From IMG/VR virus record IMGVR_UViG_3300034069_000619, positions 1 through 64,000 of that record: a DNA stretch of 64,000 nucleotides. One strand, given 5' to 3'. The notes under the pieces were generated by a model. The model saw only the letters and a program-made list of their open reading frames with translations. It searched no databases and was not told the origin of the DNA. This document shows positions 29,635 to 58,145 of the stretch, piece after piece. Source of the DNA: a virus. The translations under genes and the position numbers were made by a program. The number at the start of each line of letters is the position of its first letter. The stretch's first letter is position 1.

Positions 29635-30615
29635 ATGGCCGAGACAGGGCCTCCCTATCCCCCGCTACCAGGACCGGGATCAAACGCCATCAGCCATTTG
29701 GCGATTGGCTCTGGACAGATTGGGGATATCGCCGAGTTTGACTGGTGGCAGACGATCATCAGTCAGTATGCTAACTCGTCGCGTCTCACCGGCATCATCG
29801 GCAACATTGCCGGGTATCTGGACCAGACCGCCAACCTTGATGCCTTTTTTGATCTGATCTGGAACGTCAACACAGCCGAGGGCTATGGCCTGGATATCTG
29901 GGGAAGGATCGTAGGGGTCGGTCGCAATCTTCAGATCCTACCAGGCGACTGGTTGGGGTTCGAGGAGGCTCAGCCTGGATCTGACCCATTCAATGACGCT
30001 GGTCCGGTTACGTTTACCCCTGGGTTCGGTTTCGATGAAGGGGACGGCGGTTCCTTTGGCGAAAACTCTTTCGGCCTTGTAGCTACCTTTGGTACTGGAT
30101 TCCTGACTGGAGGTTCATTCTTTTCGAGCTATACCCTTCCTACAAATTACCGCTTGCTTGATGAAGACTACCGCACCCTGATTTTTGCTAAAGCTGCAGC
30201 GAATATTACTGACGGATCCATTCCAGCAATAAATCAAATTTTGATGGGACTTTTTCCTAATCGTGGAAACTGTTACGTTACCGACTGCCCAATGCCGCAG
30301 TCATATTTAGGCTTTGCCGAAGCACTTTACACATCAAGGTCTTTCAATAGTCCTAAAAATGTATCTCAAACCAGCGGTATTGGGTTTGAGGAAGCGGATG
30401 GCGCTCCGTTCGGCACACAGCCTTTTGGTGTTTTCACAACATATGGCGACTCAAATAATACGGGGGGGTTTTTCTATTCCGGAACACCGGATCCCCGTAT
30501 GACTTTGACTTATACGTTCGAGTTTCAGCTAACACCTGTTGAACTCGCGATCATCAAACAATCCGGCGTACTCCCGAAGCCTGTAGGCGTCGCGGCGACG
30601 GTCGTCATCCGTTAG
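29635..30615 (+). CDS. DUF2612-like baseplate/fibre-attachment protein
   Basis: Motif DWWQTIISQYANSSRLTGII...FDLIWNVNTAEGYGLDIWGRIVG. Contains an internal duplicated GFEEA..FG..FG segment. Confidence 0.6.
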   Translation: MAETGPPYPPLPGPGSNAISHLAIGSGQIGDIAEFDWWQTIISQYANSSRLTGIIGNIAGYLDQTANLDAFFDLIWNVNTAEGYGLDIWGRIVGVGRNLQILPGDWLGFEEAQPGSDPFNDAGPVTFTPGFGFDEGDGGSFGENSFGLVATFGTGFLTGGSFFSSYTLPTNYRLLDEDYRTLIFAKAAANITDGSIPAINQILMGLFPNRGNCYVTDCPMPQSYLGFAEALYTSRSFNSPKNVSQTSGIGFEEADGAPFGTQPFGVFTTYGDSNNTGGFFYSGTPDPRMTLTYTFEFQLTPVELAIIKQSGVLPKPVGVAATVVIR

Positions 30616-30625
30616 GGATTTTAAA

Positions 30626-33070
30626 ATGCAGGCGTCCCAGCTCCCGAATTATAAGTTCCCGATCCCGTTTGCAAACTCGGCCAGCGCTCAATATCAGCGC
30701 ACGATTCCCAAGGGTTCGCAGCAGGGCATCATCGATGGTGCGGCATCTCTTGCTGACGGCTTTCCCCCAAAAACATTCATTCCGGTGAATTCGGGTGGAA
30801 CCCCTCCTTTCGGGCAGGACTTCAACGGTCTGCTGAACGCCATCACCGCTTGGACCCGATGGCAGAACGCTGGCGGCCTAGTTACGTTTGACTCCACGTT
30901 TGCAGCCGATATCGGCGGCTATCCCATGGGCGCCATTCTGATGTCGGCGACGCCAGGTCGCTTGTGGCTTAGCACGACTGACAATAATACGACCAACCCT
31001 GATGTTAGCGGCACAGATGGGACGGGTTGGACCTCTATCGTCACGTCTGCGGTGAGATCCTATTTTCAGGCAGGGGACGTTAACGTCAACATCTCTGCGA
31101 ATGATAGTGTGGTGGCGACAAATGTCGTCCTAACTGCTCCGCGCGTCTGGACGCTGCCGCTGGCATCATCTGTTCCGGCAGGGACCACTATTGCGCTGAT
31201 TGACCCTGATGGCGCGGTATCTTCCGCCAACACGATCACGATCGCGTGTTCTGGTTCGGATACAATTAACGGACAAGTGACGGAGGTTCTTTCCACCTCT
31301 TTCTTCCAACTTGAAGCATACTCGGATGGTTTGTCGAGATGGACTTTCCAATATGTTGATCTTAGCCAGATTCCTGGTTATGCGATAACGATCGCTGGAC
31401 TCCAGAGCGGGCTGACGTCGCTGCTGGCACAACTTGCAGCCCTACGAGCTTTCTTTCTTGCAGAGATTGCCGCTCTGCGCGCTAGCCTCACGGCCAGCCA
31501 AACCACAACGAGCAATCAGGGCGTTGGCGCAACCTACTCTGGCATCGATTATTTTGTCGATGAAAGTCAGTGCACCCCATCATTTCCTGGATATAATTGT
31601 CTCGTAGGCCAGGGGCAAGGCCTCACTTTCAAGCCTGGCTCTACTGCGCAGACAAATTTTACGCTCGCCAATCCTTTTGCTGCTAATCCGGCAACATCCT
31701 CGTTGTCAGGTTACACCGCCCTCGGAGTTCAGAGCCAAGTCAACGCCAGTGACCCAGGTCCGATTGCGACGACTATTTCTATTCAACAGCTCCCTGCGGT
31801 AACGCAAACGGTCACCCAGCGTGGACTTCCGAGAGTTCGGTCACTTTATGGTGCTCAGTACACGGCTGGATCAACCAACCAACTACTAATGAGCGGTGAC
31901 CCGACGCGGCTGTTCGGCAACAACACAAACGATTTTACGTACAATCCTGTATGGGGTAATTGGGTCACACCGACGACTGCCCTGGTGCAAAATAAAGGGC
32001 TATGGCAGTACACTGCAGCAAAGGATTACTGGACCCCTATTCTTGCAACGAGCACAACTAACGGTTGGAACGGATTTGTTCAGAGCTACAAGTTTCCATT
32101 TGCGCTCGTTACTACCGGCTTTTTCGTGCCGTTCGTTCCTAGCGGATCGGGACAGGTCCGCATTTTGCTCATGAAGAGCAAATCTGATGGCAGTCCTGAT
32201 TTTTCCAATGTTATAGCAGATCGGACTCTGACAGCAGGTGGAGCTAGTACAGATCCTAATACTGGCGCCCAGGGCACCCCAATGACGTTTGCCCCAACAT
32301 ATATTGCGCCAAACGCAACCATACATGCATGCTTTATCTCAAGCGTCGGTGGGACTTTAACTATGAGCAACAGCGTAGGATACGCTACTGCTTTCTTGGC
32401 CCAGACTGCCGGTAATTTCACGACTTATGGTCCGCAGTTTGCCGACATGACGATGTACGGTCTAAATTTCAACGCCTCTGGTCAGATCAGTTTTTTGGGG
32501 TCAGGAAACATTGTGCTCAGCTCGGGCATAAACAGTATTGACCTATCAATTCCGGCTATTATTCCTGATGGCTGCTCAGTCGATGTTCTGCTGAATGGCA
32601 AGAGCATGGCCACCACAGATCCATCTGTGGTGTTTGCTGGCGCACCCACATCTGTCGGGTTCCAGCTAGTGTTGTATGGTAATGGTGTCGTTACTCCTAT
32701 CGTTGATACCGCCAACATGAAAGTTTGGGCTTCGCAAGGCGGAACCTCGTTTCTCAATGAGAGCGCCACGTTCACGATGCCGTCGCCTGAAAGCACAGTA
32801 GTCGAGAGTGCTATTTTGTCCGGCTACAATCCAGCAGTTCATACCTATGCCGAAATGCTCGAAGCCGGCAGCAGCCCAAGCACGCTTGCTGCAGCGGTCG
32901 CAACGACAGGAACCCCTACGCCAGTCGCGCAGTCGGATGGGACTTATCTGGTCACCAGCACGTGGAGTCTTAGTTCACCAGCGTCGGCCATCCGGTTTCG
33001 GAGGCAGGGCACCACCACAGACGCGACGCAGCAATATCGCGTCGTTCAGGCTAATCGTCAGGCGCACTGA
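30626..33070 (+). CDS. tail fibre protein
   Basis: 814 aa with a conserved fibre-type N-terminus (PNYKFPIPFAN...GFPPKTFIP...GTPPFGQDFNG). The body is AT-richer. Confidence 0.7.
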   Translation: MQASQLPNYKFPIPFANSASAQYQRTIPKGSQQGIIDGAASLADGFPPKTFIPVNSGGTPPFGQDFNGLLNAITAWTRWQNAGGLVTFDSTFAADIGGYPMGAILMSATPGRLWLSTTDNNTTNPDVSGTDGTGWTSIVTSAVRSYFQAGDVNVNISANDSVVATNVVLTAPRVWTLPLASSVPAGTTIALIDPDGAVSSANTITIACSGSDTINGQVTEVLSTSFFQLEAYSDGLSRWTFQYVDLSQIPGYAITIAGLQSGLTSLLAQLAALRAFFLAEIAALRASLTASQTTTSNQGVGATYSGIDYFVDESQCTPSFPGYNCLVGQGQGLTFKPGSTAQTNFTLANPFAANPATSSLSGYTALGVQSQVNASDPGPIATTISIQQLPAVTQTVTQRGLPRVRSLYGAQYTAGSTNQLLMSGDPTRLFGNNTNDFTYNPVWGNWVTPTTALVQNKGLWQYTAAKDYWTPILATSTTNGWNGFVQSYKFPFALVTTGFFVPFVPSGSGQVRILLMKSKSDGSPDFSNVIADRTLTAGGASTDPNTGAQGTPMTFAPTYIAPNATIHACFISSVGGTLTMSNSVGYATAFLAQTAGNFTTYGPQFADMTMYGLNFNASGQISFLGSGNIVLSSGINSIDLSIPAIIPDGCSVDVLLNGKSMATTDPSVVFAGAPTSVGFQLVLYGNGVVTPIVDTANMKVWASQGGTSFLNESATFTMPSPESTVVESAILSGYNPAVHTYAEMLEAGSSPSTLAAAVATTGTPTPVAQSDGTYLVTSTWSLSSPASAIRFRRQGTTTDATQQYRVVQANRQAH

Positions 33071-33474
33071 TGGGCGCGCAATCTTCTCCGGGATGGAGCT
33101 ACGGCTTCGTCCCGACGCCTGCCCAATGGAACAGGGCGTTTTCCGAGAAACAGGATGCATTGGGATTTACGCCGGTTAATCGATCCGGCGACGTGATGAC
33201 CGGCACGTTGACCCTCAAAGCGTCCAGTGTTTTCGGTCCGAGTCTGACAATCACTCCAGGCGTATCGCCTGCTGGCGATGCCAAGGCCGATGGCGATCTC
33301 TGGATGACGTCAGACGGTCTGTTCTATCAGATCAATGGTGAATCCGTAGGTCCCATAGGGGTTGCCCAAACATTCAAAGCCATGTTGACTGCTCTTTGGG
33401 CTTCATTGCCTACGTCGCCACCCCTGACGCCAGGTCTTCCTTGGCGGAACGGTGACACTCTGTCATTCTCGTGA
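33070..33474 (+). CDS. fibre-associated protein
   Basis: 134-aa ORF; its ATG overlaps the fibre stop. Confidence 0.5.
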   Translation: MGAQSSPGWSYGFVPTPAQWNRAFSEKQDALGFTPVNRSGDVMTGTLTLKASSVFGPSLTITPGVSPAGDAKADGDLWMTSDGLFYQINGESVGPIGVAQTFKAMLTALWASLPTSPPLTPGLPWRNGDTLSFS

Positions 33475-35173
33475 GGTTGCTTTGAATCGTACATCATGCC
33501 TTGTTTTGGGCTTTATCGCCATCTTAGCAACCTCAGCGTCTGCCCAGCAAGCAACACCGCCTTTTTTTGCAAGATTTGGAGTTGTATTTGCTGACGGATC
33601 TGTGGTTAAAGGGGTAGGAACTAGTAGCAACACTGTCGCATCAGGCCCAGCTCTCGCGGGAGAGATAGCCAGAGCTACGGCTGCAGAACAAGCCAACGCA
33701 TCTGCGAACGCAATCAATTCATCATCTATTTCAGCAGAAACGGCCCGAGCGCAGACTGCTGAAGCGAATATATCTACTGCTGCGGCACAGAAAAGCGCTA
33801 ATCTGTCGGATCTCGCGTCCGCTTCGACAGCGCGCACAAATCTCGGGCTTGGCACCGCAGCGGTGCAACCGTCGAGTTTCTTCCTCCAGGTTGGCAACAA
33901 CCTCTCCGATCTAGCGTCCGTGACCCTAGCCAGGGCGAACCTTGGGCTTGGGACGATCGCAACTCAGGCGGCGAGCGGCGTCGCCATCACGGGCGGCACG
34001 ATCAACGGTACGGCGGTCGGCGGCACGATGCCCGCGGCCGGCGCCTTCACCACTCTGTCAGCCACGACGCCAGTCTCAGTCGCCTCGGGCGGAACCGGTG
34101 GGTCCACGGCCTCGGCGGCTCGCTCCGGGCTCGGCGCAGCGGCTTCGGGCGCCAACACCGACATCACGAGCATCTCGGGCCTGACCACGGCCCTGAGCGT
34201 CGGGCAGGGCGGCACGGGCGGAACGACAGCCAGTGGCGCCAGGATGGCCCTCAGCGCGGCGGCGAGTGGGGCGAACACCGACATCACGTCGCTTTCGGCC
34301 CCGGCCCTCGGCGCAGCCACTGCAACCACCCAAGCGGCTGGTACGGCCAATTCGACGGTCGCAACAACTGGCTTTGTCGCGACCGCGGTTGGTGGCGGCT
34401 CTGGGAGTTCTGGGTTCCCCTCTACCTTCGCGACCAAGAGCGCGAGCTATACCGTCGCCACGAGTGACGCGGGCACTCAGTTCACGCTCACGGGCTCGTC
34501 GACCCTGACCCTGCCATCGGCAGCTTCCTTCGGGGCCGGCAAGGGCATCTTCGTCAAGAAGACGGACGGCACCGGCACGTGGAGCATCGCGCCATCAAGC
34601 GGCACGGTGGATGGGCTATCCGCGATCGCAATGTATTCCGAAGGCAGCTACGCCATCGTCTCAGACGGCACGAATTGGCAGAGCCAGGGCCGGCCTAAGG
34701 GATGGATCCCGATCAGCTCCGTGGTCGTGTCGTCGGCAGTCGCCAGCATCAATTTTACGACGGGCGGAACCGATCCCGAGCTGACGGACATGCAGATCAA
34801 TGCCGAAAACGTCAATCTCGGATCTGCCAGCGGCTTCGTGATGTACCTGCAGAAGTCAGGATCATACGTCACGAACAGCAACTCTTCGGCCATTCTTTAT
34901 AGCGGTAGCGGAACGGCGAACTCGACGTCCTCAACGAGCTTGACGCCCTTCGTGGGGTCCAACGCAAACGGGCTCTTTGCGACCTTCACGACCTATAATT
35001 TCCGAAGCACCGCGCAACGTGTCGAGATGACGGGGGCTGTCCCACTGACGCCATACATGGGAACAGCGCAGGGGCAGAACACGACGGCCGCGCCGGTCAC
35101 AGGATGGCAGCTAACGCCGGGTGGGCCGAACATCACGGCAGGATCCTTCTTTCAGAAAGGGTTCCGCAAATGA
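33452..35173 (+). CDS. second fibre-like protein with repeats and a signal-peptide-like N-terminus
   Basis: Repeats NLSDLAS..ARxNLGLG and GAAASGANTDITS. N-terminal LVLGFIAILATSASAQQ. Confidence 0.55.
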   Translation: MTLCHSREVALNRTSCLVLGFIAILATSASAQQATPPFFARFGVVFADGSVVKGVGTSSNTVASGPALAGEIARATAAEQANASANAINSSSISAETARAQTAEANISTAAAQKSANLSDLASASTARTNLGLGTAAVQPSSFFLQVGNNLSDLASVTLARANLGLGTIATQAASGVAITGGTINGTAVGGTMPAAGAFTTLSATTPVSVASGGTGGSTASAARSGLGAAASGANTDITSISGLTTALSVGQGGTGGTTASGARMALSAAASGANTDITSLSAPALGAATATTQAAGTANSTVATTGFVATAVGGGSGSSGFPSTFATKSASYTVATSDAGTQFTLTGSSTLTLPSAASFGAGKGIFVKKTDGTGTWSIAPSSGTVDGLSAIAMYSEGSYAIVSDGTNWQSQGRPKGWIPISSVVVSSAVASINFTTGGTDPELTDMQINAENVNLGSASGFVMYLQKSGSYVTNSNSSAILYSGSGTANSTSSTSLTPFVGSNANGLFATFTTYNFRSTAQRVEMTGAVPLTPYMGTAQGQNTTAAPVTGWQLTPGGPNITAGSFFQKGFRK

Positions 35174-48187: not shown

Positions 48188-49204
48188 TCAGGATGGTTTG
48201 CCACCCTTTTTCGGGAGCTTGTCCATCCCTGAGCGAGAAAGCCGCTTCTGATCCGCGGCCTTCGTGTAGCGCTCAATCTCTTTGAGCGTGACGTGACCGG
48301 TGATCGCGCCAATTTCGTGCGGTGTGGCGCCGGCATCCGCCAACCGGCTCGCTGCGGCTTTTCGAAGCCCGTGCGACGTGCACTCGGCTGGCAATCCTGC
48401 CTTGTGGATAACCCCGTTGATCCAGTTGCTGTAGCCGGCAGGGCTGAAGGGCTTGCCCGCTTCCGTCGCGATGATGGTGGTGCCGCGACGCGGTGCCTTG
48501 TCGAGAATGGCAGCAAGGTCGTCGTGGATCGGCACGTCGAGGCGGGCACCCGTCTTCCGCTGGGCCACACTGATTCGGTCGCCATGGATATGCAGCCACG
48601 TCATGCGATGCACATCGGATGCCCGCTGCGCCGTGTAGAGGTGCAGCGCGAACGCCAGCCGTTCCCGTGATCCGATCGGCCAGAAGGCTTCAAAGGCCGC
48701 AATCTGCCCGTCAGTCCATGTGTGGACCTCACCAATCTTGCTCAGGGCGATGCCGGCCGTTGGGTCAGATGGTGCCATGCCGATATCGACAGCGAACCTC
48801 ATCAGCGTCCGCAGCCGTTTCAGGAAAGAGTGAGCCGCGCCTGGCGTCGGCTCCATCTCCTGAATGATCGTTTTCACAGCCTCCCTCGGCAGTGTCGCCA
48901 CAGCCCGATGTCCATGCTGCGCCGCGAACTTCTCCAGTTTGGAGCGGTAGGCGCGGCGCGTATCGGGGGCCAGCCGACTGAAATCCAAGCTGGCGAAATA
49001 GCGAGAGAGAAGGTGGTTGAACGTGCCCTGCGTCGGCGTCTTCGCCTCGACCTCTTTGGCCCTCAGCGTCTCTGTCGCTTCGGCATAGGCGGCCATGAAG
49101 TCAGCCTCACCCGGCACTCCCGGCAAAGAAACTCGCACGTCTCCCCTGCGGTAGTAGTGTCGGCGCTTGCCGTGCCGGTCCACGAAGGTGTGCACGTAGG
49201 GCAT
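48188..49204 (-). CDS. int: tyrosine integrase
   Basis: C-terminal HGLRKAAASRLADAGATPHEIGAITGH...EIERYT catalytic-domain motifs. The MPYVHTFVDRHGKRRHYYRR start follows the xis stop. Confidence 0.9.
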   Translation of the reverse strand: MPYVHTFVDRHGKRRHYYRRGDVRVSLPGVPGEADFMAAYAEATETLRAKEVEAKTPTQGTFNHLLSRYFASLDFSRLAPDTRRAYRSKLEKFAAQHGHRAVATLPREAVKTIIQEMEPTPGAAHSFLKRLRTLMRFAVDIGMAPSDPTAGIALSKIGEVHTWTDGQIAAFEAFWPIGSRERLAFALHLYTAQRASDVHRMTWLHIHGDRISVAQRKTGARLDVPIHDDLAAILDKAPRRGTTIIATEAGKPFSPAGYSNWINGVIHKAGLPAECTSHGLRKAAASRLADAGATPHEIGAITGHVTLKEIERYTKAADQKRLSRSGMDKLPKKGGKPS

Positions 49205-49206
49205 GG

Positions 49207-49485
49207 TCAGCGGCGCACCACGTCGTCCCATCCCGGCAGCTCCGGCATTTTGATCGGCATATCGCCTTGCCGGGGCAGCGACTTGAAGGCAAGCGTCAGC
49301 TCATCGACGTCCCAGAGCAGGCGAGTCCGCAGGGCGCGAGGGCGGGGCATCGTGCCTTCATCCACAAGCTCGCGGAACATGGTTTCGCTGATGCCGACGA
49401 ACAGGGCGGCTTCGGGGGCGCTCAAGGCGTGTCGGGGCGCGAGCCTAGCGACAGCATGGATGTTGTCTCGCACTGCCCTACCCAT
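49207..49485 (-). CDS. xis: excisionase / AlpA-like HTH protein
   Basis: Internal ATG 49485. LSAPEAALFVGISETMFRELVDEGTMPRP HTH motif, immediately upstream of int. Confidence 0.7.
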   Translation of the reverse strand: MGRAVRDNIHAVARLAPRHALSAPEAALFVGISETMFRELVDEGTMPRPRALRTRLLWDVDELTLAFKSLPRQGDMPIKMPELPGWDDVVRR

Positions 49486-52446: not shown

Positions 52447-53129
52447 CGGTCGGCTCCAGAGGTAAAAAGGGGCGGTTCAGGGCGCTTCGGAAGCTCGTAG
52501 AAAGGCATCCAGAGCAAGTCCGGCTCGTCGTTGAGGCCGTCGTTCGGATAGCCGTCGAGGATCCGCCACGGAAACGACTTGCCTTCCCGCCATTTGGCCT
52601 TGTTGACGCGGACAAGCTTTGGACCGTCGCTCCAGGCGAGCCAGATCGTGGTCCCGTCCTTCGGTGCCGTGCTGATGTTTTGCCAGGCGCCCGATACGCC
52701 AACCACCTCCGCCCGCAGCGTCGCGAGTTGAGCTTCGGCGGTCTCGGCGCGGGTGCGAGCGTCGTCCCACTCGGTGACGATGGTGCGGACGGCGGAGAGG
52801 AGGGCCTGTTCAGCCGCCAAGCAATCAGCTCGTGAGCCAGCCTGTGAGTCCGTCCAAAAGACATTGATGCTGGCGCTGAATGTCCTGACTAGCCGCTCCA
52901 CCTCCCCCATCGTGTCCGGCTCGGCGGCGCGGCCGGGCGTGGGGGTGGCGAGAGCGGCCGCTAGGCCGTAGGGGTCAACGACCTCGCCGGAAAGCATCGG
53001 TTCGTCGTTGGGGCCGGACATGATCACCCAGGGATGGGCAAGCTCAAACCTCTCGACACGCAGGTGGTACCCACCGGGCAGTTCAATCCGCTCTACGGTG
53101 GGGACGGGGGAGGAAGGGGCGGGGGTCAT
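52443..53129 (-). CDS. DUF551-like domain protein
   Basis: 228 aa. C-terminal WQNISTAPKDGTTIWLAW motif. Confidence 0.55.
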   Translation of the reverse strand: MTPAPSSPVPTVERIELPGGYHLRVERFELAHPWVIMSGPNDEPMLSGEVVDPYGLAAALATPTPGRAAEPDTMGEVERLVRTFSASINVFWTDSQAGSRADCLAAEQALLSAVRTIVTEWDDARTRAETAEAQLATLRAEVVGVSGAWQNISTAPKDGTTIWLAWSDGPKLVRVNKAKWREGKSFPWRILDGYPNDGLNDEPDLLWMPFYELPKRPEPPLFTSGADR

Positions 53130-54219
53130 GGTCGAGCTCGCGGTCTAAATTAGGAATTACGGCGCGGACGAAGGCTGCCGCCGCGGGCGGCGAGATGGCG
53201 TTACCCGCGCCCCGCAGGAGACCCACGCGACCGGATACCCCATGAGCCAGAGGGAAAAGGCCGGGTTGAGTTGGCCGGGCTTTTCCGTCGCGGCAGGGGA
53301 GCCATTCGAGGTCGGACCACGGAGCAAGATCGCTTGCTGGCCGAGCGTCATCCCGAAGCCATTGCCGTTGCCAGTCCTGATCCGGCACTCCTCCCGGCGC
53401 TCCAACATCCGGTCGGCGTCCTTCGCTTCGAACCCGCTGGCGCTCGGTGTCGCCCAGCCCGAAAGCCGAGACACACTCTCGAGTGTCCGCTGCACCTTCG
53501 TGCCGTTCGCTCGCTTGCCGGAGATCACCGCCTCGTCGGAGGAGTTTCGCCCTCCGTTCGGCACCGCAGGCGTCGGCCACGCTGCCAACTGCGCGTGCTC
53601 GTTCAAATTGGCGAAGCCCGGGTTGCCCTTGCCCTCCGCTCGACACCGAGCACGAATTGCCTTGATCTGCTCGGGCGTCTTCGGCGTCGCTGTGTCGTGG
53701 ACCTGCGGCGTCGGCCAGCCCGACCCACCACAGCCGCTGTCGGATGTGCGGAGCGCCGAAGCCCGCAGCGCACAGATCGACCGCCCCGAAGGCGTAATCC
53801 GCTCCTTCCAGGTCAGCCGAAACAAGGTCGAGCCACTGGAGGCCGTCGCGGCTCGCAACCTGCTCTCCAAGGACCGTTGCAGGGCGGCGCTCCGCGATGA
53901 GACGGAAGAACTCAGGCCAGAGGTGGCGAGCGTCGTCAAAGCCGCCTCGCTTGCCGGCTGCCGAGAAGGGCTGGCAGGGGCAGGAGCCGGTCCAGACGGG
54001 CTCGTGATCGGGCACGCCGGCCATGCGGAGCGCGAGGCTCCAGCCCCCGATGCCGGCGAAGAAATGGCACTGCCCGTAAGGCTCCAGGTCGGCAGGTCGA
54101 ACATCGACAATTGAGCGCTCGTCGACGATGCCCGGCGCGATGTGGCCCTCGGCGATGAGCTCGCGGAGCCACGCGGCGGCAAAGGGGTCGTGCTCGTTGT
54201 AGAAGGCTCCGGCATTCAC
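53083..54219 (-). CDS. DNA (cytosine-5)-methyltransferase; reading frame of the central third is questionable
   Basis: Frame A carries FAGIGG (motif I), PCQPFS (IV), GAPHIRQRLWWVG (VIII) and GNAISPP (X). GTG 54219 overlaps the upstream stop. The overlapping same-strand ORF 53157-54215 has better codon bias through the middle (see findings). Confidence 0.7.
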   Translation of the reverse strand: MNAGAFYNEHDPFAAAWLRELIAEGHIAPGIVDERSIVDVRPADLEPYGQCHFFAGIGGWSLALRMAGVPDHEPVWTGSCPCQPFSAAGKRGGFDDARHLWPEFFRLIAERRPATVLGEQVASRDGLQWLDLVSADLEGADYAFGAVDLCAAGFGAPHIRQRLWWVGLADAAGPRHSDAEDARADQGNSCSVSSGGQGQPGLRQFERARAVGSVADACGAERRAKLLRRGGDLRQASERHEGAADTRECVSAFGLGDTERQRVRSEGRRPDVGAPGGVPDQDWQRQWLRDDARPASDLAPWSDLEWLPCRDGKARPTQPGLFPLAHGVSGRVGLLRGAGNAISPPAAAAFVRAVIPNLDRELDHDPRPFLPRPHRRAD

Positions 54220-54629
54220 TTCGACCCCTCCCCACCAGCAGGGGCGGCGCCTTGGGCAATGGCCAGGGCGGAGCAAATCTGCCGTGCCAGACCAAGATCA
54301 ATGGTGATGTTGTCGGCTCCGCGCTCCACGGCCGCTTCAATTCGAAACCGAATGCGAGGTTCGAGGTGACGACTCGGCAAGCGCAGGTTCAAGGCTGCGG
54401 CGATCTCGTTCACCCGCTCTTCTGCCGTCCCGATTTCGCCTTCCGACCAATTCATGGCGGATTGATCGTCAGCTGGATCAATGGTGCAGATTGAGAACCA
54501 AGCCGACAGGCCATTGATGCATGGGTATTGGCGTTCGACCTGCCAATGGCCGGAGAGATGACAGCGAGAGGCACGGTACGGACCAAGCGTCGCCACCTGT
54601 GGGGCGAGACGGGAGGGGGTGGTGCTCAT
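54216..54629 (-). CDS. hypothetical early protein
   Basis: 137-aa ORF with 4-nt overlaps. Confidence 0.5.
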   Translation of the reverse strand: MSTTPSRLAPQVATLGPYRASRCHLSGHWQVERQYPCINGLSAWFSICTIDPADDQSAMNWSEGEIGTAEERVNEIAAALNLRLPSRHLEPRIRFRIEAAVERGADNITIDLGLARQICSALAIAQGAAPAGGEGSK

Positions 54630-54871
54630 GCCGCCCTCGCAGCGTCACGATCCTCGATCACCGCCACGACCGGAACGGTACGCGGATGCTCAATCAGGTC
54701 GAAGATCTGCTGGCGCCGTGTCGGGCCGGCGTCGGCCGCGAAGAACGTCACCGCATCGGCGTCGAACATCTGCTGTTCGCGCTTGCTGAGGCGGATGCCG
54801 GCGGCGGTGAGGTCAGCAGCCTCAAGGAGACCCAGCCGAAGCACAGCAGTGTGGAATGCCTGCGCGTTCAT
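54626..54871 (-). CDS. hypothetical early protein
   Basis: 81-aa ORF with 4-nt overlaps. Confidence 0.5.
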   Translation of the reverse strand: MNAQAFHTAVLRLGLLEAADLTAAGIRLSKREQQMFDADAVTFFAADAGPTRRQQIFDLIEHPRTVPVVAVIEDRDAARAA

Positions 54872-55176
54872 GCTGCTCTCCGCGAGCGATAGGCCGAAAC
54901 CATCTCACGATCCGACCGGGCTTGGTCGAACAGGTCTTCGTCGTGCTGCTTGGCGATCTGCTCCGAGAGCCAAGCCGGAAGGTCGTGGTGCCAGACGCCG
55001 CCGCACTTCACGCTGACGGTGATCCATTCGACCGAGGCAGGCTCGCCAGGAGTGCCGCCGGACGAGTAGGACGGGCCTTCGTCAGGCGTGCCGGGCCAGT
55101 AGCGGAACTGGATTTCGATCTGCTCGAAAGGCGCATCAGCCGGAGCGTCGTAGCGGTGATCGGAATAGCGGGTCAT
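54868..55176 (-). CDS. hypothetical early protein
   Basis: Internal ATG 55176 with ATGA overlap. Confidence 0.5.
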   Translation of the reverse strand: MTRYSDHRYDAPADAPFEQIEIQFRYWPGTPDEGPSYSSGGTPGEPASVEWITVSVKCGGVWHHDLPAWLSEQIAKQHDEDLFDQARSDREMVSAYRSRRAA

Positions 55177-55529
55177 TGGCCGGCCTCCTCGGCGAGGGCG
55201 ATGGCGCGAGTGAACCCAGCCATTATATCGCTGTGCTTGCACTTACTTCTATCGTTCCACTCATAAATCTCATCCTTGCCAATAGCTTTTCTGACAAAGT
55301 TAAGAGTCTTCTCCGATAGGTTCATTCGGAAGGAAGAAAAGCTATCTTCCTTCGTAGCTCTGAGGATAGCGCCTTCCGCGCAGAAGCAGACGGCATCGTC
55401 GTAGATAACATTAGTAGGTAGTCCCTCATCGGTGCGGGCAAGCTCGCCCTTGGTCCACCGCTTCGGATCGCTCAGCAACTCCCGCGCTGCCCTCAGCGCC
55501 TCGCTGGGCTTGGTCGGGGCGGGGGTCAT
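55173..55529 (-). CDS. conserved hypothetical phage protein
   Basis: 118 aa. The ...CFCAEGAI...YEWNDR... pattern is common in phage early regions (from memory). The 3' half is AT-richer. Confidence 0.55.
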   Translation of the reverse strand: MTPAPTKPSEALRAARELLSDPKRWTKGELARTDEGLPTNVIYDDAVCFCAEGAILRATKEDSFSSFRMNLSEKTLNFVRKAIGKDEIYEWNDRSKCKHSDIMAGFTRAIALAEEAGQ

Positions 55530-56684: not shown

Positions 56685-57302
56685 TTAGCTAATTCGTTTG
56701 GACACCTTGCGAACGGTGCGCCTCGGTGCAATCCATGTGACGAAGGCGGCGCTTTCGACCTGCTGTTCGCGCATCGTGTCAGCGGTGGCGCTTTCGAGAT
56801 CAAAGAGACCGGCCGCCCGGCTGTGAAATGGCTTCTTTATGACCACCTGGCCGTCTGCCAGCCACAGCACGCAAAGCTCACCGACCATGTCCTCTGTGAC
56901 CGGCCCGCGCTCGTCGTCGTAATAGATCAACCAGCCGTCCTCAGCGACGCCGCGCATGCTTGTCCCCCGCACCTCCACGGCAACGGTTTTGTCACCGCTG
57001 TCCGGCGGTCGGAGTGCCCAACCGAGTTCGCCGTCTGAAGCTGCATAGGATACGCCGCCGTTAGAACCCGCGCCAACGAGACCCACGATTGAAACTTCTT
57101 GCGGAGTCTCGATCACGATGGACGGATCTACCCCGAAGGCACGCGCAGCGTTGGCGATAGAAGCCTCATTCAACTTCCTGTCGCCACGCTCAAGTTTTAT
57201 GTAGCCGCTCCGCGAAATTCCCATTTCCATAGCGGCCCTCTCGAGGGTCCAGCCACGGTCTTTGCGGAGGTGACGAAGGTTGTTGCCCATGACGGGTGAC
57301 AT
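56685..57302 (-). CDS. CI-like repressor (XRE HTH plus S24 LexA-type peptidase)
   Basis: LRHLRKDRGWTLERAAMEMGISRSGYIKLERG HTH motif. C-terminal GTSM...K S24-like domain. ATG 57290 is an alternative start. Confidence 0.85.
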   Translation of the reverse strand: MSPVMGNNLRHLRKDRGWTLERAAMEMGISRSGYIKLERGDRKLNEASIANAARAFGVDPSIVIETPQEVSIVGLVGAGSNGGVSYAASDGELGWALRPPDSGDKTVAVEVRGTSMRGVAEDGWLIYYDDERGPVTEDMVGELCVLWLADGQVVIKKPFHSRAAGLFDLESATADTMREQQVESAAFVTWIAPRRTVRKVSKRIS

Positions 57303-57374
57303 GCATGCCGATCTTTTTGTTGTCGTTCCCCAAGTTGGGCTTGCAATGTTGCCCATTCCGGGTAACCTATGGGC
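57281..57374. promoter_or_regulatory. cI/cro divergent control region with repeated TGTTGCCCAT boxes
   Basis: TGTTGCCCAT at 57281-90 and 57347-56. Near-palindrome GTTGCCC-N5-GGGTAAC at 57349-67. GCCCAT-N12-ATGGGC also present. Confidence 0.5.
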
Positions 57375-57375
57375 C

Positions 57376-57600
57376 ATGCAGCTCAAGTCCTTCATCCAGG
57401 CCAGCGGCCTCCCCGACCAGCACTTCGCTGAAAAGCTCGGCGTTTCGCTGTCGGGACTGCGCAAGTGGAAAGCCCGCAATCGGGAGCCAGATGCGGCCAC
57501 GATCGCCCGCATTGAAGCTTTGACTGACGGCAAAGTCAGTCTAGCCGACTGGGCAATGCCGAAGCCGAAGCCCGTCCAGAAGGTGGGAGCGGCGGCGTGA
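57376..57600 (+). CDS. Cro-like HTH regulator
   Basis: ATG 57376. FAEKLGVSLSGLRKWKARNREP HTH motif. Divergent from the repressor. Confidence 0.7.
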   Translation: MQLKSFIQASGLPDQHFAEKLGVSLSGLRKWKARNREPDAATIARIEALTDGKVSLADWAMPKPKPVQKVGAAA

Positions 57601-58145
57601 GCGTCGTATATTTCGTTCAGCCGGTAGATGGCGGTCCCGTGCGCGTCGGTACATCTCAGGACGAGATCGGTCGCAGCCTCGCGATCGGTAATTGGCATCC
57701 TCACGGCGTTGAAATTGTAGCGACACTGCCAGGATCTTTCGCCCGTGAGGCGATGATCCATCGGATTTTCGCTGGACAGGCTCTGGGCCGTGATTGGTTC
57801 AAAGCATCTCCCTTGGTCTGGCGCGTCATGCTCGACGCGATCGACAGGCGCATCGACTGGCTCCCTGCTGAACCAACAAAGCAGGAGTGGGTCGAGGTGC
57901 GTAAAAATATGGGTCCAAGGATCAAGGCCGCGTTCGGCGGCCCGTCCAAGATGGCCAAGATCGCCGGATACAGCGCGGGGCATGTGAGCTTCGCTTGCAC
58001 TCCAACCAACTGGAACCCGCCCGCTGGCGTCTATGCAGCCCTTGCGCTGCAGGAAGCTGATCTGCGCGGCGAACTCCCTTCGTATCTCTCTGACCTCTGG
58101 CAAGAGCGGGCAGTGCCCCGCAAAACCAATCGGAGCGTCGCGTGA
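57597..58145 (+). CDS. T5orf172/GIY-YIG-superfamily domain protein
   Basis: VVYFVQPVDGGPVRVGTS...EAMIHRIFAGQALGRDWF pattern. GTGA overlap with the upstream gene. Confidence 0.55.
   Translation: MSVVYFVQPVDGGPVRVGTSQDEIGRSLAIGNWHPHGVEIVATLPGSFAREAMIHRIFAGQALGRDWFKASPLVWRVMLDAIDRRIDWLPAEPTKQEWVEVRKNMGPRIKAAFGGPSKMAKIAGYSAGHVSFACTPTNWNPPAGVYAALALQEADLRGELPSYLSDLWQERAVPRKTNRSVA

Follow-up and report, generated by a model that had tools for sequence, protein, structure and literature searches.

The subject of this analysis is a DNA (cytosine-5) (C5) methyltransferase gene on the minus strand, at 53083-54276, of a 64,000-nucleotide stretch of viral DNA (positions 1 to 64,000 of the IMG/VR record IMGVR_UViG_3300034069_000619), the whole of which is called the window below. 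Sequence comparison indicates that the locus most probably encodes a two-polypeptide C5-methyltransferase, in which the gene of one chain, beta, is nested in the gene of the other, alpha, as in M.EcoHK31I. Beta (53939-53157) lies wholly inside alpha (54219-53083) in the +1 frame. Both frames are under purifying selection. To judge from its conserved elements, the window copy is intact and belongs to a very large family of phage-borne C5-methyltransferase genes.

The listing of open reading frames (ORFs) gave two that overlap by more than 1 kb on the same strand, ORF A and, in the +1 frame relative to it, ORF B, and the protein-like signal follows the order A, B, A. The motifs FAGIGG, PCQPFS, GAPHIRQRLWWVG and RVGLLRGAGNAISPPAAAAFV lie in frame A, and GWPTPQVHD, AWPTPAVPNGGR, GWATPSASGFE and LNPAFSLWLMGYPVAW lie in frame B. 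An earlier reading of this DNA from the sequence alone, here called the sequence-only reading, had described two almost completely overlapping ORFs, and its exact coordinates and +1 offset were reproduced by the listing. The motifs, the W(P/A)TP repeats and the WLMG.P..W segment ahead of motif X were all found as it described them. Its hand counts of third-position GC, higher in A and then higher in B, were matched by the computed values, which were 0.83-0.93 in frame A and 0.63-0.80 in frame B over about 54220-53950, 0.50-0.63 and 0.77-0.83 over about 53710-53500, and 0.57-0.70 and 0.80-0.83 over about 53290-53170. The methylase stretch is 67% GC, and open frames alone are therefore weak evidence in the window.

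We compared 160 homologous loci, taken as the best tblastn matches to frame A. Half of them (80) came from GTDB genomes, among these Brucella, Yersinia, Morganella, Desulfovibrio, Pseudomonas and Sphingomonas, and the other 80 were viral contigs of IMG/VR. In essentially all of them RVGRLRxYGNAI lies in the same frame as motif I, the +1-frame WPTP repeats begin just past motif VIII, and a +1-frame WLMGxPxxW stands exactly 7 codons ahead of the frame-0 RVG. The layout was found in about 130 of the 131 loci with all landmarks, in genomes of 44-70% GC, and is shared by gene 58 of phage N15 and by E. coli ETEC H10407. Since it occurs in essentially every locus, the A-B-A pattern is a property of the family and not a lesion or an assembly error. 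A scan with the N-domain only gave 16 classifiable loci. In most of these, frames 0 and +1 ran open for 200-500 codons and frame +2 met a stop within 19-82 codons; a fused arrangement was seen at one locus. By tblastn, the beta frame was present in 171 phage records.

When a chimera of the N-terminal part of A and of B was used as query, many single-ORF proteins covered 94-100% of it, and many others matched the N-terminal half only, at about 80% identity. Two types of C-terminus were seen. The first (...LNPAHSRWLMGLPxEWDxCAxTxTPS..RRKSS) is like frame B of the window and the second (...DWLxCRDGKWRPVEPGTFPLAHGxxxRVGRLRGYGNAIVPQVA..FI) is like its frame A. As the aligned sequences indicate, the two consensus types are two readings of one DNA.

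These comparisons bear on whether the locus is a decaying gene or a sequencing artefact, with compensating indels and frames kept open by chance at high GC. The base composition of the window copy and the opposite-strand ORFs of 209-290 amino acids (aa) are what such an account would expect, as is the fact that openness of the beta frame over alpha codons 88-158 is not significant in the window alone (P = 0.67). However, the identical layout occurs at 44-55% GC (N15, ETEC H10407, Yersinia, Morganella), where the third frame has 5-14 stops. The window copy also keeps all conserved elements of both proteins and belongs to a subgroup with RVGLLRGAGNAI and WLMG(Y/F)P (L048, L159). We regard decay or artefact as extremely improbable, and the comparative data effectively refute it. 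The sequence-only reading had offered a cryptic pseudogene made by compensating indels as its first explanation, which does not agree with a family-wide layout in which both frames are selected. Its second, assembly indels, is excluded by the recurrence of the layout in about 130 independent loci, drawn from isolates, phages and metagenomes. Compensating frameshifts may nevertheless be the ancient origin of the layout. The opposite-strand ORFs (53242-54114, 290 aa, and 53271-53900, 209 aa, both on the plus strand) are probably a by-product of the 67% GC and of two constrained minus-strand frames. Among the fetched loci, frame 0 was interrupted in just two, L021 (in the linker) and L102 (32 codons past motif I); these are possibly true pseudogenes, possibly sequencing errors, and illustrate how a decayed copy looks.

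As shown by stop-codon analysis, frame A is stop-free through the middle in 130 of the 131 loci with all landmarks. Shuffling of synonymous codons in frame B gave a mean expectation of 3.2 frame-A stops across the family, with the probability of none, P(0), mostly <0.05 per locus. In the third frame, which served as control, 7.5 stops were observed and 7.6 expected, and the openness is therefore specific to frame A. In the window the linker has no stops where about 3.3 are expected (P = 0.0185; 168-codon middle, shuffles of frame B), and P(0) was 0.010 for phage N15 (52% GC) and 0.0085 for ETEC H10407. In 47 nucleotide-aligned pairs the mismatches in the middle fell at beta codon positions 1, 2 and 3 in proportions of 28%, 22% and 49%, and in three equal-length pairs 70% of the changed codons were synonymous when read as beta, compared with 6% when read as alpha. 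As a protein, frame A is not conserved in the middle, save for islands such as LAD(A/T), which is the alternative reading of WPTP. In this part of the gene beta is the selected protein, and the alpha linker need only stay stop-free. The sequence-only reading had considered homologues in which frame A is conserved through the middle and frame B is closed by stops; in the homologues examined, frame A is open but unconserved there and frame B is open and conserved.

Towards the 5' end of beta both frames are constrained. We used 109 distinct ungapped sequences to analyse synonymous sites in the N-domain. Up to codon index ~77 the third codon positions of alpha show an entropy of about 1.7-1.9 bits where they are 4-fold; at index ~101-153, over the N-terminal module of beta, third positions are almost invariant. 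Near-fixed alpha codons include P107 CCT (108/109), F111 TTT (74/74), V115 GTT (105/109), V127 GTA (90/107), E132 GAA (104/108), G139 GGG (91/91) and D142 GAT (78/78). No +1 stop was found after codon index 34 in any of 108 sequences. The constraint on both frames near motifs VI-VIII extends over about 50 codons.

A second such stretch, of about 30 codons, lies ahead of WLMG. The mean entropies at its three codon positions are 0.75, 0.84 and 0.86 bits; none of the three behaves as a wobble position, which means that the stretch is conserved in both frames. Within WLMGxPxxW the wobble falls at beta position 3, and from the next codon it falls at alpha position 3, across RLRxYGNAIV..A..FI. The switch points proposed in the sequence-only reading (near 53718-53722 and near 53205-53215) are thus real as changes of signal. 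They do not mark a change in the frame that is read; the dominant constraint passes from one protein to the other.

The same pattern could be read as a programmed double frameshift, +1 past motif VIII and -1 past WLMGxPxxW, which would yield one canonical single-chain enzyme. The points of handover of constraint are sharp and the A-B-A chimera reads canonically (..LNPAFSLWLMGYPVAW-GLLRGAGNAISPP..). Its profile aligns weakly to the motif IX/X regions of M.HhaI, M.HaeIII and Dcm, with 0-3 of 300 shuffles reaching the real score. However, a double frameshift needs no open frame A across the middle, yet that frame is open in 130 of the 131 loci. It also leaves unexplained the conserved beta-frame module upstream of the first supposed shift and the 30 conserved alpha-frame codons upstream of the second. 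A canonical slippery heptamer for a -1 shift, of the form X XXY YYZ, was found near the B-to-A junction in only 3 of 110 unique sequences. At the A-to-B junction there is no conserved nucleotide signal, because the synonymous sites of alpha are free (R154, R156 and L157, entropy 1.4-1.8 bits). To our knowledge, there is no precedent for two efficient shifts within a single mRNA. We consider the double frameshift very unlikely. The third explanation in the sequence-only reading, dual coding or recoding, is accordingly divided: dual coding agrees with selection on both frames, the beta N-terminal module and the start signal, but ribosomal frameshifting does not agree with the missing conserved slippery site and a frame A that is kept open. 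A hidden Markov model (HMM) check of the A-B-A chimera, which that reading had proposed, neither supports nor refutes it, as the coverage of PF00145 and TIGR00675 barely differs among alpha, alpha N-domain plus beta, and A-B-A, and all matches end at about profile position 170-190.

Alpha is predicted, from sequence and model, to be the S-adenosylmethionine (AdoMet)-binding, catalytic large domain of a C5-methyltransferase. PF00145 matched it at 1e-15 (58 bits, cut-off 22) over profile positions 66-168; the match covers the N-terminal third of frame A only (residues 96-194 of the 397-aa ORF). TIGR00675 gave 50 bits against the whole of alpha, under its cut-off of 100.65. Residues 68-169 of M.HhaI (motifs IV-VIII) aligned with alpha at 1e-12, and phrog_363 matched over the full length at 2e-78. 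The column of motif I is invariant in alignments A2 and A4, yet the motif is weakly scored by HMMs (M.HhaI domain 1 weak). In the AlphaFold2 (AF2) model of alpha the predicted local distance difference test score (pLDDT) is 85-95 for residues 1-170, <50 for the linker at 174-301 and 75-83 for a helix at 344-363, and the top fold matches in Foldseek were M.HhaI (4e-7) and M.HaeIII. The sequence-only reading had the ORF right and gave it from 54276, where a TTG stands, but this is the less likely start. GTG 54219 is the probable one; GGAGG precedes it, and it shares a GTGA with the TGA stop of the gene upstream (54216-54629).

Beta likewise begins probably downstream of ATG 54215, the limit of the ORF given in the sequence-only reading, although the frame is indeed open from there. 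In the window the likely start, by its sequence context, is TTG 53939, a coordinate less secure than any other given here. About two thirds of unique family sequences have an internal start signal, in which AAAGGAG precedes a +1-frame TTG (index 88) and/or ATG (index 89), and synonymous variation in alpha is reduced at index 78-93, coinciding with it. In N15 the nested ORF of 215 aa starts with TTG-ATG, 5 bases past GGGAGG, and the site reads GGGAGGAAAATTTGATG. The family consensus of the beta N-terminal module is LQxSLESRLRAxTAxxGSTLYKLTWKERxTPSGRxIxALRASxRRTS, and AF2 models the module as a helix and hairpin with pLDDT 85-88. The motif IX-like segment of beta follows the pattern LNPxxSxWLMGxPxxW. 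Database searches with beta gave 4344 homologues (E <= 1e-5), of which the named ones are all "hypothetical protein" and none has a Pfam domain, and 11191 representative clusters at E <= 1e-3. Beta also matched phrog_1008 (7e-20) and phrog_31772, both labelled DNA methyltransferase. The coordinates of all elements are given in Table 1.

Table 1. Positions of the elements of the two overlapping genes in the window, and loci with fused genes
Feature	Position	Strand	Remarks
ORF A (frame A)	53083..54276	minus	397 aa; ORF listing
ORF B (frame B, +1 relative to A)	53157..54215	minus	352 aa; ORF listing
Alpha ORF, predicted large-domain subunit of C5-methyltransferase	53083..54219	minus	378 aa, ~41 kDa (40.9 kDa); matches to PF00145, phrog_363 and M.HhaI
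Alpha catalytic motifs, span	53731..54060	minus	invariant columns in alignments A2 and A4
Alpha motif I, FAGIGG	54060-54043	minus	
Alpha motif IV, PCQPFS	53979-53962	minus	
Alpha motif VI, GEQV	53868-53857	minus	
Alpha motif VIII, PHIRQRL	53751-53731	minus	
Alpha linker, rich in R, A, G and D	53320..53709	minus	aa 171-300; unconserved as protein, predicted disordered, stop-free
Alpha RVGLLRGAGNAISPPAAAAFV, motif X-like segment and following helix	53167..53229	minus	assigned by pattern; from codon +10 wobble at alpha position 3
Beta ORF, +1 frame	53157..53939	minus	260 aa from TTG 53939, ~27.5 kDa; frame open from 54215
Beta alternative starts	TTG 53870, TTG 53858	minus	
GAGG, Shine-Dalgarno-like	53945..53948	minus	5 nt 5' of TTG 53939, within alpha codons K-R-G-G
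Beta N-terminal module (LQRSLESRLRA ... GSTLFRLTWKERITPSGRSICALRASALRTS)	53742..53882	minus	over alpha motifs VI-VIII; both frames constrained
Beta W(P/A)TP repeat region	53445..53717	minus	candidate target-recognition part; WPTP in +1 frame of nearly all loci
Beta repeat WPTP	53717-53706	minus	
Beta repeat WPTP	53579-53568	minus	
Beta repeat WATP	53456-53445	minus	
Beta NGNGFGMTLGQ	53369-53337	minus	directly downstream of repeat region
C-terminal stretch constrained in both frames (alpha ..WSDLEWLPCRDGKARPTQPGLFP / beta ..GPTSNGSPAATEKPGQLNPAFSL)	53250..53339	minus	~30 codons
Beta GQLNPAFSLWLMGYPVAW, motif IX-like segment	53223..53276	minus	W, L, P, W invariant in 113 sequences
Beta-frame-unique peptide stretches			TLFRLTWKER, LSGWATPSASGFEAK
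Fused locus, Pseudomonas (P0008)	L164 2001-2912		
Fused locus, Klebsiella (P0033)	L165 2001-3110		
Fused locus	L182		

In the structure of M.HhaI the large domain is made of motifs I-VIII together with X, and the small domain of the target-recognition domain (TRD) and motif IX. On this division of parts, we infer that alpha is the counterpart of the large domain of a classical enzyme, and beta that of its small domain and hinge. Alpha would provide the catalytic large domain, with motifs I-VIII, a disordered stop-free linker and a C-terminal motif X-like helix. Beta would be translated from an internal ribosome-binding site, probably from TTG 53939 to 53157, and would contribute the parts that alpha is without: an N-terminal docking module, the WPTP recognition region and the motif IX-like segment. 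The two chains would join non-covalently, as was shown biochemically for M.EcoHK31I. No single frame has both C-terminal elements, as the X-like GNAI is in alpha and the IX-like LNP..WLMG.P..W is in beta, on overlapping nucleotides.

Natural in-frame fusions support a functional link between alpha and beta. Genes of Pseudomonas (P0008) and Klebsiella (P0033) join the alpha N-domain in frame to the C-terminal part of beta, with a single change of register close to motif VIII and the first WPTP; the beta N-terminal module (+1) and the alpha C-terminal part with GNAI (+2) are separate open frames, and the motif IX/X overlap is kept. In the fused loci the beta N-terminal module is a short +1 ORF that stops soon past the first WPTP, and the alpha C-terminal part (CRDGKWRPVEPGTFPLADG..RVGRLRAYGNAI) can be read in frame +2, which stays open from motif VIII on. 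A single register change appears, from these sequences, to have re-partnered four half-genes.

It could be argued that both proteins are real but that beta is an overprinted phage protein in its own right, such as an anti-defence or DNA-binding factor, and that alpha alone is the enzyme. Profile searches with beta found no Pfam or NCBIfam family and no PDB match, all catalytic motifs stay in alpha, and we know of no counterpart of the beta N-terminal module in classical C5-methyltransferases. However, alpha has nothing conserved from motif VIII to its C-terminal block, which leaves it no part to read the DNA sequence. The fusions described above occur in RefSeq isolates, the end of beta is patterned like motif IX, and a beta of this kind is needed for activity in M.EcoHK31I. 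We consider an independent beta unlikely.

Several points weigh against a nested two-polypeptide methyltransferase. The start codon is absent at the proposed position in about one third of unique family sequences, and in the window the Shine-Dalgarno sequence is just GAGG and the start TTG. AF2 folds beta alone only locally (pLDDT 70, predicted template modelling score 0.33), and a Foldseek search with that model gave no match at E <= 1e-3. Motifs IX and X were assigned by pattern and position of conservation only. PF00145 and TIGR00675 detected motifs IV-VIII only, in alpha or in any chimera construct, and the C-terminal profiles A5 (chimera) and A6 (alpha) found no methyltransferase among PDB sequences. 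Against the C-termini of M.HhaI, M.HaeIII and Dcm the same two profiles land on motifs IX/X, but at 2-4 bits only, which we take as a lead and no more. Translation of beta at this locus, association of alpha with beta, methyltransferase activity and the choice of the chain that reads DNA are what we infer from sequence.

A wider proposal is possible, though we hold it with somewhat less than even confidence. The family of N15 gp58-like "orphan Dcm" proteins (>11,000 clusters at 50% identity) may consist of obligate heterodimers, with a ~260-codon overlap that would be among the longest conserved same-strand overlaps known in bacteria and phages. Beta would be a separate, unannotated DNA-reading subunit built of exchangeable WPTP modules. 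Specificity would be swapped by exchange or duplication of beta modules while the alpha linker just stays open. The register change near motif VIII would be the natural route between the split form and the fused form, the latter being an alpha N-domain/beta C-part fusion with separate ORFs for the beta N-terminal and alpha C-terminal parts.

The methylase gene lies between an integrase gene (48188-49231) and a repressor-like gene (56685-58103), and its surroundings look like a prophage early region. The methylase genes of the family, which occur in such regions, probably shield phage DNA from restriction. Upstream, the minus-strand genes at 54868-55242, 54626-54871 and 54216-54629 overlap in series by 4 nt, and the last overlaps the GTG of alpha, which suggests that 54216-55242 is a translationally coupled phage early operon. 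The three small genes had no match in a PHROG search. Elsewhere in the window, 30001-34000 has a GC content of 0.52-0.54 compared with ~0.62 in the remainder and may be a separately acquired segment.

Other members of the family have further features. Both N15 (gene 57, L161 821-1153) and ETEC H10407 (L186 1-204) have a DUF4406 gene upstream of the methylase, and in ETEC H10407 a VRR-NUC gene stands between the two; it is possible that DUF4406 is a conserved neighbour of the methylase family. In Komagataeibacter phage phiKX1 (L163 1116-2772) alpha is 548 aa long, and an insertion of ~170 aa separates CRDGKFRPVEP from motif X. At 2254-2772 this phage has an ORF that contains Cys/His motifs like those of an HNH or zinc-finger domain and ends in a second copy of the beta tail (AWDDCAVTAMPSSRKS). 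The insertion may be a mobile one with a duplicated junction. Alphas with long inserts like that of phiKX1 were also seen in P0023, P0040 and P0082.

GenBank and RefSeq records of N15 and ETEC H10407 annotate alpha only; among the records inspected, only that of Xanthomonas phage PhiXhv-28 lists both overlapping coding sequences. More than 4,000 beta-frame proteins stand in databases as domain-less hypotheticals, and in the phage and E. coli records inspected alpha is usually the sole "DNA cytosine methyltransferase". If target recognition resides in beta, specificity predictions for a very common class of phage methylases have been aimed at the wrong protein. For the evolution of overlapping genes the family offers a large natural data set, at 44-70% GC, with stretches in which both frames are constrained and others in which one is merely open. 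For enzymology it would give thousands of natural split variants together with fused forms. A literature search for the family-wide overlap and for N15 gp58 found nothing relevant, with coverage that was incomplete and is no proof of novelty. The architecture itself has a published precedent; how broad the family is, and that its candidate recognition region sits in the nested protein, appear not to be generally recognised.

In the literature consulted, just two natural two-polypeptide C5-methyltransferases are named, M.AquI and M.EcoHK31I (PMC3404938), and both have served as platforms for targeted methylation (PMC2836561). M.EcoHK31I of E. coli HK31 recognises YGGCCR (Lee, Kam & Shaw 1995, cited after PMC2836561 and PMC3404938). 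Its beta is encoded entirely inside alpha in another frame, both chains are needed for activity, motifs I-VIII and X are in alpha and motif IX is in beta, and deletion of the beta N-terminus weakens the association of the chains (PMC2836561, PMC3404938). The locus in the window has the same nesting and may have the same partition of motifs, with IX and X assigned by pattern and position of conservation; the comparison was made by architecture and subunit sizes. The conserved N-terminal module of the window beta stands where the M.EcoHK31I beta has the N-terminus that serves association. The M.EcoHK31I plasmids are named pET3a-M38 and pET3a-C23, and sizes of 36.6 and 23.3 kDa for alpha and beta of N15 and of 40.9 and 27.5 kDa for those of the window are compatible with M38 and C23. 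Two differences were noted. The literature predicts the TRD of M.EcoHK31I in its alpha, whereas here beta holds the sole conserved candidate, the WPTP repeats. M.EcoHK31I is part of a restriction-modification pair, whereas the window gene stands alone in a prophage, and no endonuclease gene was identified among the scanned neighbours.

M.AquI, which recognises CYCGRG, is likewise a two-subunit C5-methyltransferase (PMC3404938). As in the window, it is split within or after the variable region, and its small subunit has part of the recognition region, together with motif IX. Unlike the window beta, that of M.AquI also has motif X. We know of no report that the M.AquI genes are nested in alternative frames.

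N15 gp58 (alpha, L161 1134-2129) is a direct homologue with the same nested +1 ORF, of 215 aa, at L161 1408-2055. It is annotated, together with phrog_363, as a single-gene orphan phage Dcm-like "DNA methyltransferase". The classical enzymes M.HhaI and M.HaeIII have the same large-domain fold and the same motifs IV-VIII as alpha. In these enzymes one chain runs from large to small and back to large domain, whereas in the window the equivalent of the small domain would be a chain of its own, for which the DNA coding for the alpha linker is read in the other frame.

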